A DNA stretch of 36,207 bases from a virus (taxonomy: Duplodnaviria > Heunggongvirae > Uroviricota > Caudoviricetes): the IMG/VR virus record IMGVR_UViG_2541047897_000007, positions 1-36,207 of that record, one strand, 5' to 3'. The notes beneath the pieces are model-generated. The model was not told the DNA's origin. It was given only the letters and a program-made list of their open reading frames with translations, and made no database searches. Below are positions 1 through 9,101 of the stretch, piece by piece. The first letter of the stretch is position 1; each line of letters begins with the position of its first letter. A program made the translations under genes and the position numbers.

Positions 1-1002
1 TTACCCTCTATTGTCAAAAGGGTTCAATTCAACAGCAGCCTCTAAATGACCTGGAGCAAAATGCGCATAACGCATAGTCATTTTTATATCGCTATGCCCC
101 AGTATTTTTTGCAACACAAGAATATTTCCGCCCCGCATCATAAAATGACTGGCAAACGTGTGACGTAGCACATGAGTTAATTGCCCATCAGGAAGCTCGA
201 TCTTCGCTCTCTTAATTGCAGCGTCAAAAGCCTCATAACATGGTGAAAATAGCGCTCCTCGTTTTTTGGGAAGCATAGCCTGCAATTGAGGTGAAATCGG
301 TACAGTGCGGTTCTTCTTTCCTTTAGTTTTAACAAATGTGATTCGACCGGGCAGTACTTGAGATTGCTTTAATCCTTCTGCTTCACTCCACCGAGCACCA
401 GTCGCAAGCCCAATACGGACAACAACCCCCAAATCTTTATTCCGTGACTCATCACACGCAATCAGAAGGCGTTCAATCTCATCTACATACAGAAACGCCA
501 GTTCCTTTTCTTCCTCACGAAACTTGCGAATACCAGTCAGGGGGTTTTCACCAGACCACTCCCCAAGGCGCTTCAGTTCGGCAAAAACAGCATGTAGATA
601 TGACTGCTCGCGATTAACGGTTGCTTCACTAAGTTTTTTCTTCCCCTTGGGATTCCATTCTCCTGATAGCCTTCTTTCCCGATAAGTGGCAAACATATTT
701 TTGTCAAACTGAGAAGCAAATGGATCTCCCAGCCTGGAACAAATCGCCTCAAGTTTGACTTTGCGCTCTGCACCAGAGGACAAGGTTTTACCGTACATCT
801 CAAACCAACGAGCAATCAACTCAGAAAGACGAGGACCAGAACCATCTTGAAACTCGTCTCCAACTCTACTATTCATTAAACGGCGCTCATAAGAGAGCGC
901 CTCACTTTTTGTCGCAAACTGTTTACGAATGCGTTTTCCCGATGCCCCGTAGGGATAACATTCGCAAAGCCATTTACCTGATGGAATCTTACGAACCGAC
1001 AT
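1..1002 (-). CDS. int: tyrosine-type site-specific integrase
   Basis: 333-aa ORF with stop at 1..3; C-terminal catalytic region HVLRHTFASHFMMRGG...RYAHF matches the tyrosine recombinase signature; sits at the prophage end in P2-like orientation. Confidence 0.9.
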   Translation of the reverse strand: MSVRKIPSGKWLCECYPYGASGKRIRKQFATKSEALSYERRLMNSRVGDEFQDGSGPRLSELIARWFEMYGKTLSSGAERKVKLEAICSRLGDPFASQFDKNMFATYRERRLSGEWNPKGKKKLSEATVNREQSYLHAVFAELKRLGEWSGENPLTGIRKFREEEKELAFLYVDEIERLLIACDESRNKDLGVVVRIGLATGARWSEAEGLKQSQVLPGRITFVKTKGKKNRTVPISPQLQAMLPKKRGALFSPCYEAFDAAIKRAKIELPDGQLTHVLRHTFASHFMMRGGNILVLQKILGHSDIKMTMRYAHFAPGHLEAAVELNPFDNRG

Positions 1003-1007
1003 TTTAG

Positions 1008-1355
1008 TTACTTATCACATAAATCAAATGCAGCCTTAGTGACATCCCCTAGGCTCTTTTTTAACCCTGGGGCGGCATCATTATCTAGCCAAAATGGATT
1101 ATTGTTATCTAACGGTAACGCACCAAATGTTTTACCTTTTATTCGAGCCAAACCTGTAAGTGCATATAACTTATTATCGTCAAAATTCATCACATAAGGA
1201 TTACCATCAAGACACTGTAATTGAACCTCATCAGTATTAAATGGCCATACCCCATTGAAACTCTCACGTTCAATAGTTTTAAAAGGCATTGCGACGGCGG
1301 AAAAAGAAAACATAGATAAAAAAGTAACTAATAGTTGAACCTTTTTTACTTTCAT
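1008..1355 (-). CDS. hypothetical secreted protein
   Basis: 115-aa ORF with N-terminal signal-peptide-like segment MKVKKVQLLVTFLSMFSFSAVA; two Cys residues; lies between int and the repressor operon. Confidence 0.55.
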   Translation of the reverse strand: MKVKKVQLLVTFLSMFSFSAVAMPFKTIERESFNGVWPFNTDEVQLQCLDGNPYVMNFDDNKLYALTGLARIKGKTFGALPLDNNNPFWLDNDAAPGLKKSLGDVTKAAFDLCDK

Positions 1356-1384: not shown

Positions 1385-2035
1385 TTACAAATTAAAAAAC
1401 GCCCTAGAAATGACACCGCCTACCAAAACCCCTACGCAGATAAAGAATATTATTTCTTTTGGATAAAGTCGGATTAATTCTGAAGCACGAAGTCGGACTT
1501 CTGGTAAGGTCGAACTCTCTGTGTGGCTTGATGCCGATTGTTGCTCTAACCACGACAATGCAGACTGTAACTGAGAACGAGTAAGATCGTTTAAACGTCC
1601 TGTACCGAAATTGATATGGCAATACCGCAGAAGTTTTTGTCGAAGTCCACAGTCTTCACTGTTACGTAGTAATAAACTTACAAGAGCCTTACAGGCATCA
1701 TGATCTTTACATCGCTCAAGCATTGCATGCAGAAAACTCTCCGCTGTTTTATATTGATTTACTGTCATATCATCAATACCAGCTACACCAATCTCCGCAT
1801 GTACTTTTTGCCAAATAATAAACGCTTCAGTATTGCTAGCTTCTGCAATAGCAGCAACCAAGCTATTCAGCTCCTTACGCTGAGCCTTAAGCAAAGGGCG
1901 ATCGTCATCATCATTATTCGAAGGGATTGCGATATTGACGGTATGAGAACCATCATATCGCTCTATCTGAATATTCTTTTCGTGAAAATCACGCCCAGCA
2001 ACGCGATTGTTTGAACCGTTTGAGTTGACGGCCAT
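1385..2035 (-). CDS. hypothetical protein with C-terminal transmembrane anchor
   Basis: 216-aa ORF; C-terminal hydrophobic helix IIFFICVGVLVGGVISRAFF; starts 15 bp after the repressor stop so probably co-transcribed; N-terminus shares the motif NNR[IV]AGRD[YF] with the repressor C-terminus. Confidence 0.55.
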   Translation of the reverse strand: MAVNSNGSNNRVAGRDFHEKNIQIERYDGSHTVNIAIPSNNDDDDRPLLKAQRKELNSLVAAIAEASNTEAFIIWQKVHAEIGVAGIDDMTVNQYKTAESFLHAMLERCKDHDACKALVSLLLRNSEDCGLRQKLLRYCHINFGTGRLNDLTRSQLQSALSWLEQQSASSHTESSTLPEVRLRASELIRLYPKEIIFFICVGVLVGGVISRAFFNL

Positions 2036-2050
2036 GTCACCTCCCTACTA

Positions 2051-2455
2051 TCACCTACCCTTAGTTTCGTTATAGTCACGACCAGCGATACGGTTATTAC
2101 CACCAGAAATATTTAACTCACGTCCTGATGGCTGAGTTTCCTTTTCACTGATCGCACCTTTTAAAGCCCCAATCACCGCGTTTTTCACATCTAACGAAGC
2201 TGCTCGAAAGCGAGTAATCAACTCCTGCTCATCATCGTTATAAGTTTCAGGTGAGTGAATTCCCAACACAACATACTGAACATCAAGGCCAAAACGAGAC
2301 AGCGCTGCCAAATACGCAGCATCAGGAAAGCTATCTCCTTTCTCATATCTAAGCTGAGTTAGCTTTTTGACTCCACCAATGTCGCTCATGGCAACTTGAC
2401 TAAGTCCCAATCTTTCCCTTTCCTCACGCAACCGCTGACCAATATCATTTTTCAT
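2051..2455 (-). CDS. HTH XRE-family transcriptional regulator, probable prophage repressor
   Basis: 134-aa ORF; helix-turn-helix LSQVAMSDIGGVKKLTQLRYEKG; divergent from the early operon with a promoter/operator-like region between them. Confidence 0.75.
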   Translation of the reverse strand: MKNDIGQRLREERERLGLSQVAMSDIGGVKKLTQLRYEKGDSFPDAAYLAALSRFGLDVQYVVLGIHSPETYNDDEQELITRFRAASLDVKNAVIGALKGAISEKETQPSGRELNISGGNNRIAGRDYNETKGR

Positions 2456-2530
2456 ACAAAAACCTTGACAGGTATCTTTTTTGATACCAAAATGATTTCA
2501 CGAGCTATTAGATGATCACAATATACCACT
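2456..2530. promoter_or_regulatory. divergent promoter/operator region between repressor and early operon
   Basis: TTGACA at 2465..2470, 17-bp spacer, CAAAAT at 2488..2493; the spacer carries the dyad ggtatc-N6-gatacc (2471..2488), a candidate operator. Confidence 0.45.
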
Positions 2531-2737
2531 ATGAAACAAGTTCTTCACGATACCAGATCACGCATTCCGCGTAACACCGCCACAGGTCCAAGACTGGCAC
2601 TTCGGCTGTCCCTCGAGGAGCGAGCCGTCATTGATGAAATGGCAGCTAAAGAACAACGCTCATCCTCTAACATGGCGCGCATGATCTTCCTTCGCGGCCT
2701 AGAGCTAACCCAGAAAGAACAAAACAAATCTTCCTGA
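2531..2737 (+). CDS. small early regulator, possibly ribbon-helix-helix (Cro/Apl-like candidate)
   Basis: 68-aa first ORF of the divergent early operon; RLSLEERAVIDEMAAKEQRSSSNMARMIFLRGLE resembles an RHH/Arc-like fold; no clear Shine-Dalgarno, so the start is uncertain. Confidence 0.45.
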   Translation: MKQVLHDTRSRIPRNTATGPRLALRLSLEERAVIDEMAAKEQRSSSNMARMIFLRGLELTQKEQNKSS

Positions 2738-2753
2738 TCAGGAGGCTAGTGGG

Positions 2754-2957
2754 ATGTCAGGTATAACCATCAATATCAATGTGAATGCCCCCTATGTATC
2801 CCTGCAGAAATATGCAGAGATAACAGGTATCCCTCTTAATACATGCAAAAAGATGTTGGCTGACGGTCGAATTATTATCCGCCCCAAACGCGCCAAAATG
2901 GAAAAGCCTGAAGTAAACCTTGTGGCGATGTTAAAAGACGCTTTGGCTAACAGCTAA
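2754..2957 (+). CDS. Cox-like excisionase / early DNA-binding regulator
   Basis: 67-aa ORF with AGGAGG 6 nt upstream; YVSLQKYAEITGIPLNTCKKMLADGRI resembles the HTH of P2 Cox as recalled from memory. Confidence 0.55.
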   Translation: MSGITININVNAPYVSLQKYAEITGIPLNTCKKMLADGRIIIRPKRAKMEKPEVNLVAMLKDALANS

Positions 2958-5281: not shown

Positions 5282-5402
5282 GAAACCAGAACATGCACAC
5301 ACAAAAAAACCGCTTGCCATGCCTCAATCGGTCAGGTTACATTTCCGCTGCACCTCATAAAACGGGTGCCGGGATTCTCAACCCGATACAGAGCAAAGCG
5401 CA

Positions 5403-5428
5403 TAACCGCGCAAGCGGTTTTTTTGTGC
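5403..5428 (+). terminator. candidate rho-independent terminator
   Basis: aaccgc-GCAA-gcggtt hairpin followed by ttttt; also forms one arm of an 18-nt perfect inverted repeat with 5299..5316. Confidence 0.35.
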
Positions 5429-5603
5429 GTACTGTATTGCCACGTCTTTTTCGCGTCAGAATTATGGCGGGGCGTACGGGGCCGACTTCGGTCGGGCCGG
5501 ATTCTTTGCTCTCCGGTGTTGAGAACCCTGTACGTCTCGCCACCCCGAGATTCTCAACTCTGGATGGTGAGTTATTTCTATCACCGAGCAAAGAGGCCAC
5601 ACC

Positions 5604-5834
5604 ATGGCAGACCGCAAACAGCACCGCGCTATCGCGGAGCGTCGTCACATCCAGACTGAAATCAACCGCAGACTTTCCCGCGCATCACGCGTCGCGCAAA
5701 TCATGCACATCAATATGCTGCATGAGCGCAGCCACGCACTATCAAACATTTATTCCGCCTCTGTTTTCAGCTATCTGGCGGATGATCTGCACGAGCTTCA
5801 ACAGCTCATCCAGCAGCAAAACAAACTCCATTAA
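5604..5834 (+). CDS. hypothetical protein
   Basis: 76-aa ORF with RBS agagg 8 nt upstream; basic N-terminal half. Confidence 0.5.
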   Translation: MADRKQHRAIAERRHIQTEINRRLSRASRVAQIMHINMLHERSHALSNIYSASVFSYLADDLHELQQLIQQQNKLH

Positions 5835-5906
5835 TTCCTGTTCCGGGCCTTTCCTGCACCTTGCGGCGGGAGGCCTTCGCACATCTGTAACAAGAGGATT
5901 GCCGCA

Positions 5907-6272
5907 ATGATTCTCGCCAACGACTTTCTTGAATACCTGCTCAACACAGAGCGTGATCTTGCCGCTCGCGTGCGTGATCGTTATGACATGTACCTGAAAT
6001 CCCTGCCTGTACCGCAGCTCGCTGACGGAAAGATTGTTATTGATGGTCGCTACATGATTGACAGCCACGAGGGAAATTACAGGCTTTCCCGCATTGAAGG
6101 TGGCACCCCGTCCGTTATTGGCATTTACCAGCGCCCATCCTCTGCAATCGTCGATGTGATTGCCGACAGCATCCGCATCACACATCGCCATGCCGACACA
6201 GAAGACACCGTGCTGGAAATTCAGCGGCTGGCTACAGTCTGCCGCGACACCCTGAATGGCATGACGAAGTAA
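5907..6272 (+). CDS. hypothetical protein
   Basis: 121-aa ORF with RBS agagga; immediately upstream of gene A. Confidence 0.55.
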   Translation: MILANDFLEYLLNTERDLAARVRDRYDMYLKSLPVPQLADGKIVIDGRYMIDSHEGNYRLSRIEGGTPSVIGIYQRPSSAIVDVIADSIRITHRHADTEDTVLEIQRLATVCRDTLNGMTK

Positions 6273-6278
6273 ATCACT

Positions 6279-9101
6279 ATGACGGCAGAGTACATCAGGG
6301 ACTGGCAACAACCGCGCCACGCAGTGGGGCGTGAAGGAACGGGGATCCCCGCTCCTGAATCCGCGCTTTCCTCCTGGCTGGATGCCTACCGGGTAGAGAA
6401 CGAGCGCCGCCAGGAAATGGCTGATGCGGCGTTCTCCGCCACGCCGCTGGGCAACCTGATTAATAAAAGCCTGGACGCACAGGAAAAACAGGACAAAACC
6501 ATCACACTGGCAGGAGACGCCAGAAAACAGGCACGCGGCGCAGTGGATGAAGCCATGACCTCGCTGCGCCTGCTGCCGTCCTATCTGCGCGATCCGCTTA
6601 TTCGCCACCTCTCCTTCCTGCGCAAAAAACAGGAAGCCGATCGCCGGAAAGGCAAAAAGAGCTGGCAGGCGGAACGCTATGCACGCGGAACCCTGCGCAA
6701 AATATTCGAACGTCTGGACCGCACCGATCACCGCTGGCTGACACCGGGTTATCGCTCCCTTGCCGGACGCGAACGCCTGGACGATTTGCTTTACCTGCCG
6801 CAGCTCAACAAACACCAGATACAGACGCTGGCCACCATGACGGCGGCGATGTTCAGCAGCACCTTCGAAAAACTCTGCGATGGCTTTGGCGCGACTGATG
6901 GCGAACTGACCATGGATGTAACGCTGAAGGCGTATCAGATGCTGGCCCGCATGGCGTTACACCTGCACGCCATGCCTCCACATTATGACGCACTGACAAC
7001 AGACAAAGACCGGAGGAACGAACCGGACACAGAGCTGCTGCCGGGCGCAATCCTTCGCCTGACCTGTGCGGAATGGTGGAAACGCAAACTGTGGCTGTTA
7101 CGTTGCGAGTGGAGAGAAGAACAACTCCGCGCCGCCTGTCTGGTTTCCAGAAAAACATCGCCCTATCTGAGCCAGGACGCGTTAAGCGAGTTTCGCGCAC
7201 AGCGCGAGAAAACACGCGATTTCCTGAAAAGTTTCATGCTGGAAAACGAAGACGGGTTCACGATTGATCTCGAGACAGTGTATTACGCGGGAGTAAGTAA
7301 CCCGGTTCACCGTAAGGCAGAAATGATGGCCACCATGAAGGGACTGGAACTTCTGGCCGAAGCCCGTGGCGACAGAGCGGTGTTTCTGACTGTCACCTGC
7401 CCGTCAAAATACCACGCAACAACGGAGAACGGTCATCCGAACCCCAAATGGAACGGGGCCACCATGCGCGACTCCAGCGATTACCTGGTTAACACGTTTT
7501 TTGCGGCGGTCCGCAAAAAACTGAACCGCGACGGCCTGCGCTGGTATGGCATCCGCACGGTGGAGCCTCACCATGACGGCACCGTGCACTGGCATATGAT
7601 GGTCTTTGCTCATCCGGAAGAAATCGACAGCATCGTGGCCATCACCCGCGATATTGCCATTCAGGAAGACCGCCACGAGCTGGGCAATGATATTACTCCG
7701 CGCTTTAAAGTGGAGTATGTCGACGGCTCAAAAGGCACACCAACCAGCTATATCGCGACCTACATCGGGAAAAACCTGGACAGCCGCGCCGTGGATGGCA
7801 TCGACCCGAAAACGGGCAAACCACGCGTTGACCACGAAACCGGAAAATCAATGGCCGAGAGCGTGGAGCGCGCCATCGGTTGGGCACGCCTTCACCGGGT
7901 CCGCCAGTTCCAGTTCTTTGGCATCCCCTCCCGTCAGGTGTGGCGTGAACTCCGCCGCCTTGCCAGCCAGATGGCACGCAACCCGGAAGGCCCGCAACGG
8001 CTGAAGGATGACGCAATGGATGCGGTACTCGCTGCCGCTGATGCCGGATGTTTTGCCACCTACATAGAGAAACAGGGCGGCGTACTTGTTCCACGCAAAG
8101 ACTACCTGATTCGCACCGCCTACGACCTCGCCGATGAGCTGAACGATTACGGCGAACAGAGTGTACAGATTTACGGGATCTGGTCACCACTCATCGGGGA
8201 ATCCTCCCGTGTGTGCACGCACCCGGATAACTGGAAGCTGGTAAGACGTAAACCGGAACAGGAAGGCAGCGCCCACGAAAATGGTTTTGACCTTCAGGGC
8301 GGCCCTGCCGCCCCTTGGACTCGTGGCAATAACTGTCCCCGTGTACAGGAAACGGACAACAACGGGACAGAACAGCCGGAAGAACGGCCAGCACCGTGGC
8401 CGCAGCTCCCTGACGGCGTTGAAGTGAACGAATGGATGCGCTCACTGAAACGGCACGAACGCCGGGCGCTGATGCGTTCGCTTCGTGACAAACAGGCAAA
8501 AAACAGCAGTGATGAAATGCAGAGCTGGACACAGAGCCGCAAACAGCAGCGGCCTTTGCCTGATAACCACGAATTACTCGCTAAAGAATGGCGGGAGTCT
8601 GCTGAATCTCTCGGCCTGCATATCGGTGAACAACAGATGCAGCACCTGTTACGGGGCGGCAGTCTGTACGTTGACGGCAGCATCATTGCACCGCAGGGAT
8701 TTGAAATTGTACGCAAACCGGATACCCGCCCGGACAGCCGAATCACGCAGCTCTGGCAGCGCCTGAGCCGTAATCACGGCGTAAGCAGCACGGAGATCCG
8801 CCATAACCCGGTCGCCAGCTATCTGGCGCAACTGGGGGCATCAGACCCTGAAGCCGCCGCACGCCTGGCATCCACACTTCAGCAGGACCAGAACACCATG
8901 AAAACACCCGTTACCGTGCTTTCTGACATGCTGCGCGCCATCCGCGACACAGAGCACGCACAGAGAATCAGTGAAACCACTGAACGCGCCCGCCGCAAAG
9001 CAGACCTGCTGCGGGGTGGCCTGACCATTGGAAACAAAAAACAGACAGAAACGGGATTCACAAATCCCGTAAATGAGCAAAAAACGCGCCGCGATATATG
9101 A
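6279..9101 (+). CDS. A: replication initiation endonuclease (P2 gpA-like, rolling-circle HUH nuclease)
   Basis: 940-aa ORF; HUH-type motif VHWHMMVFAH and tyrosine pair in SYIATYIGK; position after the early operon as in P2. Confidence 0.9.
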   Translation: MTAEYIRDWQQPRHAVGREGTGIPAPESALSSWLDAYRVENERRQEMADAAFSATPLGNLINKSLDAQEKQDKTITLAGDARKQARGAVDEAMTSLRLLPSYLRDPLIRHLSFLRKKQEADRRKGKKSWQAERYARGTLRKIFERLDRTDHRWLTPGYRSLAGRERLDDLLYLPQLNKHQIQTLATMTAAMFSSTFEKLCDGFGATDGELTMDVTLKAYQMLARMALHLHAMPPHYDALTTDKDRRNEPDTELLPGAILRLTCAEWWKRKLWLLRCEWREEQLRAACLVSRKTSPYLSQDALSEFRAQREKTRDFLKSFMLENEDGFTIDLETVYYAGVSNPVHRKAEMMATMKGLELLAEARGDRAVFLTVTCPSKYHATTENGHPNPKWNGATMRDSSDYLVNTFFAAVRKKLNRDGLRWYGIRTVEPHHDGTVHWHMMVFAHPEEIDSIVAITRDIAIQEDRHELGNDITPRFKVEYVDGSKGTPTSYIATYIGKNLDSRAVDGIDPKTGKPRVDHETGKSMAESVERAIGWARLHRVRQFQFFGIPSRQVWRELRRLASQMARNPEGPQRLKDDAMDAVLAAADAGCFATYIEKQGGVLVPRKDYLIRTAYDLADELNDYGEQSVQIYGIWSPLIGESSRVCTHPDNWKLVRRKPEQEGSAHENGFDLQGGPAAPWTRGNNCPRVQETDNNGTEQPEERPAPWPQLPDGVEVNEWMRSLKRHERRALMRSLRDKQAKNSSDEMQSWTQSRKQQRPLPDNHELLAKEWRESAESLGLHIGEQQMQHLLRGGSLYVDGSIIAPQGFEIVRKPDTRPDSRITQLWQRLSRNHGVSSTEIRHNPVASYLAQLGASDPEAAARLASTLQQDQNTMKTPVTVLSDMLRAIRDTEHAQRISETTERARRKADLLRGGLTIGNKKQTETGFTNPVNEQKTRRDI

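Follow-up and report, generated by a model that had tools for sequence, protein, structure and literature searches.

Why would a phage repressor end in nearly the same peptide with which the product of the next gene begins? The question is raised by a 36,207-nucleotide stretch of DNA from a tailed phage (Caudoviricetes; IMG/VR record IMGVR_UViG_2541047897_000007, positions 1 to 36,207; the whole stretch is called the window here), in which the gene for an immunity repressor is followed on the minus strand by the gene for a membrane protein, referred to below as the partner. The repressor C-terminus reads ...ELNISGGNNRIAGRDYNETKGR (or, quoted at another length, ...LNISGGNNRIAGRDYNETKGR), and the N-terminus of the partner reads MAVNSNGSNNRVAGRDFHEKN (also quoted as MAVNSNGSNNRVAGRDFHE). 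On sequence comparison, we put at roughly 60% the probability that the repressor tail and the partner N-terminus are cognate, like-with-like peptides that bind each other directly.

A peptide shared by a repressor and its neighbour

The two genes and the two copies of the motif lie as follows.

2051..2455 (including the stop codon), minus strand: immunity repressor gene, 134 amino acids, from the open reading frame
1385..2035 (including the stop codon), minus strand: partner gene, 216 amino acids, from the open reading frame; N-terminal motif, Flk_N helical domain and C-terminal membrane anchor
2066..2116, minus strand: repressor motif copy, residues 114-130 (LNISGGNNRIAGRDYNE), from the alignment; followed by four residues, TKGR
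1979..2029, minus strand: partner motif copy, residues 3-19 (VNSNGSNNRVAGRDFHE), from the alignment; inside the disordered N-terminal segment of about residues 1-42 (about 1910-2035)

A sequence-only reading of this DNA had described an eleven-residue motif common to the C-terminus of a repressor and the N-terminus of the membrane protein encoded downstream. The shared peptide is real, both genes lying on the minus strand, and the two DNA strings quoted for it are exact reverse complements of 2072-2104 and 1985-2017; its length was underestimated, the similarity spanning 17 residues. The labels given to the two proteins are borne out as well, that of repressor by an XRE helix-turn-helix protein encoded divergently from Arc-like and Cox-like genes, and that of membrane protein by a hydrophobic C-terminus for which the model has a helix (residues 192-215).

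The copies are identical at 10 of 17 residues and 30 of 51 nucleotides, and six of the ten identical residues are specified by different codons. Local alignment of the full-length proteins scores 62, compared with 29 ± 4.7 for shuffled partner sequences; a score of 62 was reached by 1 of 20,000 shuffles, and a Gumbel fit gives p of about 7e-5. No further copy of the motif core is found in a six-frame translation of the whole window. When repressor and partner sequences were fused and aligned with their homologues, MAFFT placed the repressor tails onto the partner N-terminal motif whichever protein was put first, which shows how alike the motifs are. The mean aligned length of the motif is 19 residues, with asparagine (3.7x), glycine (2.3x) and valine (1.5x) enriched and leucine (0.09x), proline (0.41x) and lysine (0.57x) depleted; glutamine is enriched only 1.16x, isoleucine stands at 0.83x, and arginine and aspartate are conserved in the class to which the window belongs. 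In the repressor, about six residues with a net charge near +2 follow the motif. Both copies have a predicted local distance difference test (pLDDT) score below 50 in AlphaFold2 monomer models and adjoin well-folded domains, a combination that is typical of segments which become ordered only on binding.

Pairing across phages

The neighbourhoods of distant repressor homologues were inspected, followed by 160 further loci obtained from a repressor-alignment search of genomes and viral contigs. Many of the sampled loci belong to transposable prophages of the Mu-like kind, in which the genes for transposase and a MuB-type ATPase lie to one side and those for holin and transglycosylase to the other. 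In the sampled loci a repressor with a glycine- and asparagine-rich tail is followed closely by a gene whose product starts with a matching variant of that tail. The pairing is general, being found in P2-like and Mu-like prophages of Gamma- and Betaproteobacteria with tails of several types, and it is kept across more than 60 unique pairs, of which five are given here.

L001: repressor tail FNGDISGQFAGNQIIN; partner N-terminus FNGTAQGQFSSRDIIN
L006: repressor tail VVGQVSSQNIYN; partner N-terminus VVGQVAANNIYN
L019: repressor tail QINGPISGGVAGRDFV; partner N-terminus EINGDVEGGIAGRDIV
L023: repressor tail VFKGSVSGVAGRDVV; partner N-terminus TFKGPVGDVAGNDVV
L024: repressor tail YGNAQIGQASAGDIVN; partner N-terminus FGGAQIDQAAAGDINN

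A reverse search that started from another Flk_N subfamily again found, upstream, a helix-turn-helix repressor gene encoding a matching tail (for example, tail TFHGSVGQSVAGNVTNKSGVTFNVG and partner N-terminus DFHGDVGQAAAGDINNYGVSISL). In some motif classes the peptide is longer, up to about 25 residues, and includes three strand-like segments, as in FHGxVGQxVAGNVTNKSGVTFNVG.

Among close homologues of the repressor the tail follows the pattern [IV]N[VI][ST]G-x-G-[NQH]-R-[VIA]-AGRD-[YF]-[NH]-E-x-KK, and among the 120 partner homologues listed the N-terminus is nearly invariant as M-x-[VI]-N-S-x-G-x-x-N-R-x-[AS]-G-R-D-[FY]-x-E; the motif residues S, G, N, R, D and E are invariant in an alignment of 29 homologues with 60-85% identity to the partner. 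Absence of the motif from homologues had been named in advance as the finding that would overturn the idea of a shared tag, and the motif is present in the homologues of both proteins. The idea also extends to distant phages, where the more distant repressor homologues (Gilliamella, Pectobacterium, Pseudomonas and others) carry other tails rich in glycine, asparagine and glutamine, each matched by its own downstream N-terminus. Tail-less repressor homologues, mostly Pseudomonas chromosomal genes beside a response regulator, have no motif-bearing neighbour.

The pair occurs in 520 of 5,426 complete E. coli genomes (about 10%), where RefSeq labels the two products only as 'hypothetical protein' and 'helix-turn-helix domain-containing protein', and also in prophages of Klebsiella, Salmonella, Yersinia, Pectobacterium, Gilliamella, Pseudomonas, Aeromonas, Burkholderia and Bordetella.

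Cognate specificity, codon usage and a natural swap

For a measure of specificity, 22 non-redundant motif-type pairs were picked without reference to their cognate score. The mean local score was 45.6 for cognate and 25.2 for non-cognate combinations (z = 10.2), a difference as high as which was found in 0 of 50,000 permutations, and 12 of the 22 tails ranked their own partner first. Other clustering thresholds gave z values of 8 to 11.

Across 68 pairs, the same codon is used at 278 of 693 identical residues, against 303 expected from codon usage alone. Codon sharing is thus at chance level, and therefore the likeness is one that is maintained between the peptides themselves, with no recent exchange of DNA renewing it. 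The earlier argument for selection on the peptide rather than recent duplication of DNA, which had been drawn from the codons of the window, accordingly applies to the pairs at large. Recent gene conversion was considered as a separate candidate and rejected, with codon sharing at the codon-usage expectation and synonymous sites saturated.

A swap that has taken place in nature separates the motifs from the proteins that bear them. Two Gilliamella repressors (loci L003 and L006) differ by only two substitutions over residues 1-105, and their tails differ. The L003 partner is a 194-amino-acid Flk_N tail-anchored protein and the L006 partner a 155-amino-acid protein with two transmembrane segments; the two partners are unrelated except at residues 6-21, and each tail matches the partner that belongs to it. 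At least three tail variants occur among Gilliamella phages whose repressor bodies are near-identical, each tracked by its own partner. The motif class is therefore tracked by the body of neither protein, and the motifs track only each other. This speaks against a receptor site in another part of either protein, and also against a common reader in the host, from which a single motif per host would be expected.

The repressor and its partner

The repressor matches the Pfam families HTH_31 and HTH_3 below their curated cut-offs and falls into PHROG families of transcriptional regulators or repressors; its XRE helix-turn-helix is related, by sequence match to the Protein Data Bank, to the N-terminal domain of P22 C2. 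The AlphaFold2 monomer model has a helix-turn-helix at residues 5-64, two helices at residues 74-106 and a disordered tail at residues 108-134 (pLDDT below 50). The tail-less homologues on Pseudomonas chromosomes (L038, L040 and L046-L085) lie about 60 nucleotides upstream of a response-regulator gene whose product starts IRVLVVDDHDLVRTGITRML..., a conserved chromosomal arrangement that is unrelated to prophages.

The partner falls in phrog_5825 (E 4e-103). Its Flk_N domain (PF27202) is precomputed on partner homologues and on the L001 and L003 partners, and the protein of the window is assigned to the family through these homologues. The equivalog model for Flk itself (NCBIfam NF007987) scores 58.1 bits over partner residues 37-166 only, against a cut-off of 353. 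The N-terminus of the AlphaFold2 monomer (about residues 1-42) is modelled with low confidence despite the near-invariant sequence there; it is followed by a helical domain modelled with confidence (about residues 47-173) and, at the C-terminus, by a hydrophobic helix (about residues 192-215). Hydrophobic C-termini are conserved among partner homologues.

1517..1897, minus strand: Flk_N-type helical domain, about residues 47-173, from the AlphaFold2 model
1391..1462, minus strand: C-terminal hydrophobic tail anchor, about residues 192-215, sequence KEIIFFICVGVLVGGVISRAFFNL, modelled as a helix

The partner has the combination of Flk_N domain and C-terminal membrane anchor that marks Flk_N-family proteins, and it is a member of the Flk_N domain family, not Flk. 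Searches of Pfam, NCBIfam and PADLOC with the partner and ten diverse partners returned no toxin or defence family above threshold.

Beyond the window the bodies of the partners are modular. An Flk_N domain is present in 47 of the 65 unique motif-bearing partners, and the other bodies comprise two-transmembrane proteins of 140-180 amino acids, a zinc ribbon joined to a transmembrane segment, and proteins of 260-340 amino acids with a coiled coil, one transmembrane segment and a small cysteine-containing C-terminal domain; none of these non-Flk_N bodies had an above-threshold match in Pfam or PADLOC. A strict hydropathy test identified a transmembrane segment in 51 of the 65, and most of the remainder have short hydrophobic C-termini which the test missed (sequences judged by eye). 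The common plan is a cytoplasmic, repressor-like N-terminal peptide, a variable middle and a membrane anchor.

Several partner types deserve separate mention. The partners of 260-340 amino acids at L016, L024, L050, L135 and L151, encoded directly downstream of the repressor, consist of the N-terminal motif, a long coiled coil, one transmembrane segment and a C-terminal segment; this last is conserved over about 35 residues with two cysteines (for example VCEFDGKPYTVGSIVANDGAADLECV), has a weak, sub-threshold match to DUF1496, is presumably periplasmic and resembles a sensor domain. In P0281, P0335, P0339 and P0375, members of the Flk_N family, two motif copies stand in tandem at the N-terminus (for example NRTAGRNYYEV...NNVAGRDVIHV) and recall the doubled repeats of some amyloid-motif effectors. 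In L196 and L197 a helical N-terminal extension, MEVFMQGEDEKLEKIKARL..., replaces the glycine- and asparagine-rich motif of an Flk_N variant, and the upstream helix-turn-helix proteins end in a helical-looking tail, ...GKILKLVVNR; these loci may represent a different kind of pairing.

The lysogenic operon

The prophage is P2-like, and the region shares 97.8% identity with Escherichia phage 520873 (Peduoviridae, Xuanwuvirus). The remaining features of the locus are listed in order of position.

1-1002, minus strand: integrase, from the open reading frame and family match; with the next gene, the rest of the lysogenic operon (region 1..1355)
1008-1355, minus strand: DUF2511 secreted protein, from the open reading frame and family match
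2036..2053, minus strand: gene junction, with stop codon TGA (2051-2053), in-frame TAG TAG, and a GGAGG ribosome-binding site (2040-2044) 5 nucleotides before the ATG
2465-2493, plus strand: promoter-like site for the early operon, in the divergent early region 2465..2957
2531-2737, plus strand: Arc-like gene, divergent from the repressor gene
2754-2957, plus strand: Cox-like gene, divergent from the repressor gene

The order integrase, DUF2511, partner and repressor, followed by the divergent Arc-like and Cox-like genes, is that expected around a P2-like immunity repressor; because of this gene order, the divergent early operon and the promoter-like site, the 134-amino-acid XRE protein can be placed in the position of a P2-type immunity repressor. 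No terminator-like site was found between the repressor and the integrase genes, and the 216-amino-acid protein is therefore co-transcribed with the repressor in lysogens. The junction reads TGA TAG TAG GGAGG TGAC ATG, with a gap of 15 nucleotides between the two genes; three consecutive in-frame stop codons (TGA TAG TAG, 2045-2053) end the repressor gene, and the downstream open reading frame begins 18 nucleotides later in the same frame. In related loci the spacing ranges from -38 to +34 nucleotides, most gaps being -4 to +34, and the frame relation is not kept.

Next after the motif-bearing partner in the operon comes a third gene, and in several unrelated phages its product is secreted or belongs to the envelope: the DUF2511 protein with a signal peptide in the window (1008-1355, minus strand), predicted lipoproteins in Gilliamella L003 (4999-5373) and L006 (3876-4274), and a membrane protein in Pectobacterium L001 (5041-5844). 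The repressor-partner pair may be part of a larger envelope-directed module.

Two matters of annotation were also noted. In the deposited genome of Escherichia phage 520873 (L167; NC_049344.1, 1039-3081) the integrase is annotated as two fragments, and the genes for the 216-amino-acid partner and the DUF2511 protein are both unannotated despite 97.8% DNA identity to the window. Elsewhere in the window, positions 5293-6815 hold long overlapping open reading frames on both strands (205 amino acids on the plus and 357 on the minus strand), just upstream of a 940-amino-acid open reading frame at 6279-9101.

Weighing the explanations

We infer a like-with-like contact because the two peptides are alike under selection, run in the same N-to-C order and belong to proteins that are made together, and a direct interaction is favoured over a common host factor because the match is specific to the cognate pair. 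Several observations weigh against this interpretation. There is next to no co-variation at the variable positions of the enterobacterial NR-x-AGRD class (11 matches against 10.2 expected at the x position), apart from a weak tyrosine/phenylalanine trend, and the co-variation signal lies between classes only; rare, old gene conversion followed by purifying selection on each copy could leave the same pattern. In addition, Janthinobacterium-type repressors at L022, L164 and L165 have a motif-type tail, VFHGKVGQQIHGDITAPQTINVGRKKK, with no matching N-terminus within 2.5 kb on either side, and the orphan tails of these loci, at least three in number, imply that the tail may also have a role by itself, such as in self-association of the repressor. 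The weak co-variation within the class and the orphan tails also speak for the absence of any functional coupling, in which the tail would serve the repressor alone (through self-association or DNA contacts), the N-terminal motif would serve the partner alone, and the gene boundary would have been duplicated or converted, an event made mechanically easy by the position of the copies as a direct repeat about 87 nucleotides apart. Such a history is very improbable, as it needs a separate duplication or conversion for each motif class, each old enough for synonymous sites to be saturated and recurring with bodies as unrelated as Flk_N, two-transmembrane, zinc-ribbon and coiled-coil types (the zinc ribbon with a transmembrane segment, the coiled coil with one and a presumably periplasmic domain); furthermore, the presence and absence of the two motifs are linked, as the tail-less homologues illustrate. 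Chance resemblance, or an artefact of the nucleic acid such as RNA structure or a read-through fusion of the two open reading frames, which do share a frame in the window, retains next to no probability in view of the shuffling result and of a pairing kept across so many unique pairs. Of the candidate artefacts, an RNA-level explanation was rejected, the junction folding no better than its shuffles (z -0.46) and having no Rfam match, and read-through fusion was ruled out by the three consecutive stop codons together with the shifting frame relation in related loci.

The two remaining possibilities grant the shared peptide a function in common. It would be improbable for both copies to be tags read by the same other factor, whether a protease or its adaptor (ClpXP, Lon, FtsH), a chaperone or a phage antirepressor, with no mutual binding. 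Disordered terminal peptides are typical degrons, the repressor tails end in basic residues, and orphan tails fit a tag that needs no partner, but the several variants carried by near-identical Gilliamella repressors are contrary to what a single host factor would impose; the classes are also very divergent across phages, yet the match holds inside each pair. The reader could instead be encoded by the phage, but neither a third motif copy nor an obvious reader gene was seen in the window. Amyloid-like signalling, a special, switch-like and self-propagating case of direct pairing in which the motifs would share an in-register cross-beta fold, is unlikely but has more in its favour. A change in the oligomeric state of the repressor would nucleate the fold and template the membrane protein, which would then act on the membrane in abortive infection or in commitment to induction. 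The motifs stand at the termini of proteins from adjacent genes and match in a cognate-specific manner; in-register stacking would call for just such a selected likeness, with the same N-to-C order; the composition, rich in asparagine, glycine and valine and poor in leucine, proline and lysine, resembles the bias reported for BASS motifs (bioRxiv 10.1101/2020.01.06.895854); some classes reach about 25 residues and contain three strand-like segments; the partners are membrane proteins, including small ones with two transmembrane segments; and a paired amyloid motif system, Bab/Agp, is known in an E. coli prophage (bioRxiv 10.1101/2024.11.07.622273). Set against this, neither an NLR/STAND or other known sensor nor a Bell or HeLo-type effector was found in the pair, the orientation is the reverse of that in BASS with the membrane protein bearing its motif at the N-terminus, and the motif of the window is short (17 residues), with conserved charged arginine and aspartate and glutamine barely enriched. 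Moreover, lysogens co-express the proteins constitutively, with the repressor already oligomeric on its operators and nothing evident to hold a switch off, and Flk, the characterised relative of the partner domain, acts as a regulatory inhibitor rather than a toxin (PMC13344023). The wider proposal that P2-like and Mu-like temperate phages, which are unrelated in type, share a hitherto unrecognised module in which repressor and membrane protein communicate by a homotypic, amyloid-like terminal peptide, diversified into specificity classes, is tentative, and the odds are against it.

A proposed mechanism and its implications

Under direct pairing of cognate peptides, the elements would be two peptides of about 17-20 residues, rich in glycine and asparagine, poor in leucine, proline and lysine, and predicted to be unstructured in the isolated monomers, encoded by genes that form one lysogenic operon with a strong ribosome-binding site before the second. 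The C-terminal anchor would hold the partner in the inner membrane with its N-terminus in the cytoplasm, and pairing of tail with N-terminus would dock repressor molecules onto the membrane-bound partner. The most likely consequence would be an arrangement like that of a membrane anti-sigma factor or an antirepressor, and regulation could run in either of two directions. The partner might hold or titrate part of the repressor pool and so tune the lysis-lysogeny switch, or the repressor tail might cap the motif of the partner, so that the membrane protein would act only on loss of the repressor. As a third alternative, the contact might work as a switch by amyloid-like templating, in the manner of HET-s/NWD2, BASS and Bab/Agp. 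That a product of the repressor operon should bind the repressor has a precedent, because RexA of lambda binds CI and biases the switch (bioRxiv 10.1101/2021.04.19.439022).

No description of the pairing was found in amyloid-signalling papers that mention repressors or helix-turn-helix proteins, in the BASS preprint, in a paper on deep-learning motif detection (PMC12261475) or in papers on Flk; phage repressors are among the best-studied regulators, and we found no earlier account of one sharing a co-evolving terminal peptide with an adjacent membrane protein. If the peptides do bind each other, the lysis-lysogeny decision would gain a new input or output, and the known use of like-with-like signalling motifs would reach beyond NLR immune receptors. 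On the wider, amyloid-like proposal the lysogeny switch would be wired to the cell membrane, either as envelope-sensing induction or as a repressor-guarded membrane effector that fires on loss of the repressor, and amyloid-type signalling would extend from NLR immune receptors to ordinary transcription factors. The motif match also offers a simple annotation rule for partner genes whose bodies share no detectable homology. The comparative evidence is strong, and the mechanism that we infer from it could be tested by tail deletions and by the motif swaps that nature already provides.

Comparison with known systems

The pair shares with HET-s/NWD2, with BASS1-10 (a Bell-domain protein and an NLR) and with Bab/Agp (BASS11) a short motif at the C-terminus of one protein and the N-terminus of the adjacent gene product. 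As in amyloid motif pairs, the match is cognate-specific, the composition is rich in glycine, asparagine and valine and poor in leucine, proline and lysine, one protein is at the membrane, and the locus lies in a prophage, as does that of Bab/Agp in E. coli. It differs in that one protein is a 134-amino-acid XRE repressor and not an NLR/STAND NTPase, a TPR sensor or another large oligomerising receptor, and the other an Flk_N tail-anchored (or other transmembrane) protein with an N-terminal motif, whereas the membrane-disrupting Bell-, HeLo- or Hell-type proteins have the motif at the C-terminus. The amyloid-motif profile is one of about 20-25 residues with beta propensity, rich in glycine, asparagine, glutamine, valine and isoleucine and poor in lysine, proline and leucine; the peptides here average 19 residues, agree with it in asparagine, glycine and valine and in the three depleted residues, have the glutamine and isoleucine values given above and are disordered in monomer models; neither protein matched the curated Pfam amyloid-motif models (HET-s_218-289, NACHT_sigma, Ses_B/PP, RHIM) at E <= 1.

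In the SinR/SinI system of Bacillus subtilis the antagonist shares the multimerisation segment of the repressor, a pair of helices, and the heteromer controls the repressor. There, as here, a small XRE-type repressor and the product of an adjacent gene share a homologous terminal segment, but the models show no helix in the segment here, which is rich in glycine and asparagine and by prediction disordered or beta-prone, and the partner is membrane-anchored and encoded downstream in the same operon. The position of the partner gene recalls lambda cI-rexA-rexB, where lysogens transcribe the immunity repressor gene together with the genes directly downstream, one of which encodes an inner-membrane protein; CI and the Rex proteins have no common motif and no relation to the present proteins in sequence or fold, whereas here the membrane protein itself bears the repressor-like peptide.

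Flk (Fluke/RflH) is a membrane-tethered inhibitor acting on the type III secretion switch of flagella in Salmonella and E. coli (PMC13344023). It has the same Flk_N helical domain and tail-anchored topology as the partner, with the bulk of the protein in the cytoplasm, but chromosomal Flk is about 330 amino acids long, starts MQP... and lacks the N-terminal motif, and the prophage proteins adjoin a repressor and not flagellar genes. Dedicated partners that keep a transcription factor off DNA, at the membrane or in aggregates, include membrane anti-sigma factors, PtsG, which sequesters the Mlc repressor at the membrane, and the aggregating antirepressors RstC and Qtip (for Qtip, preprint 10.1101/2019.12.16.877910); none of these is known to use a peptide common to both partners. 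The form of a type II toxin-antitoxin locus with an XRE antitoxin also fits in the disordered tail of the helix-turn-helix protein and the mostly short gaps between the genes (-4 to +34 nucleotides), but the helix-turn-helix protein stands in the position of an immunity repressor, and Pfam, NCBIfam and PADLOC identified no recognisable toxin domain in the downstream gene. The shared peptide thus belongs to none of paired amyloid motifs, SinI/SinR or lambda cI-rexA-rexB: it is closest in logic to paired amyloid signalling motifs, in regulatory idea to SinI/SinR, in genetic position to lambda cI-rexA-rexB, and in fold and topology to Flk.

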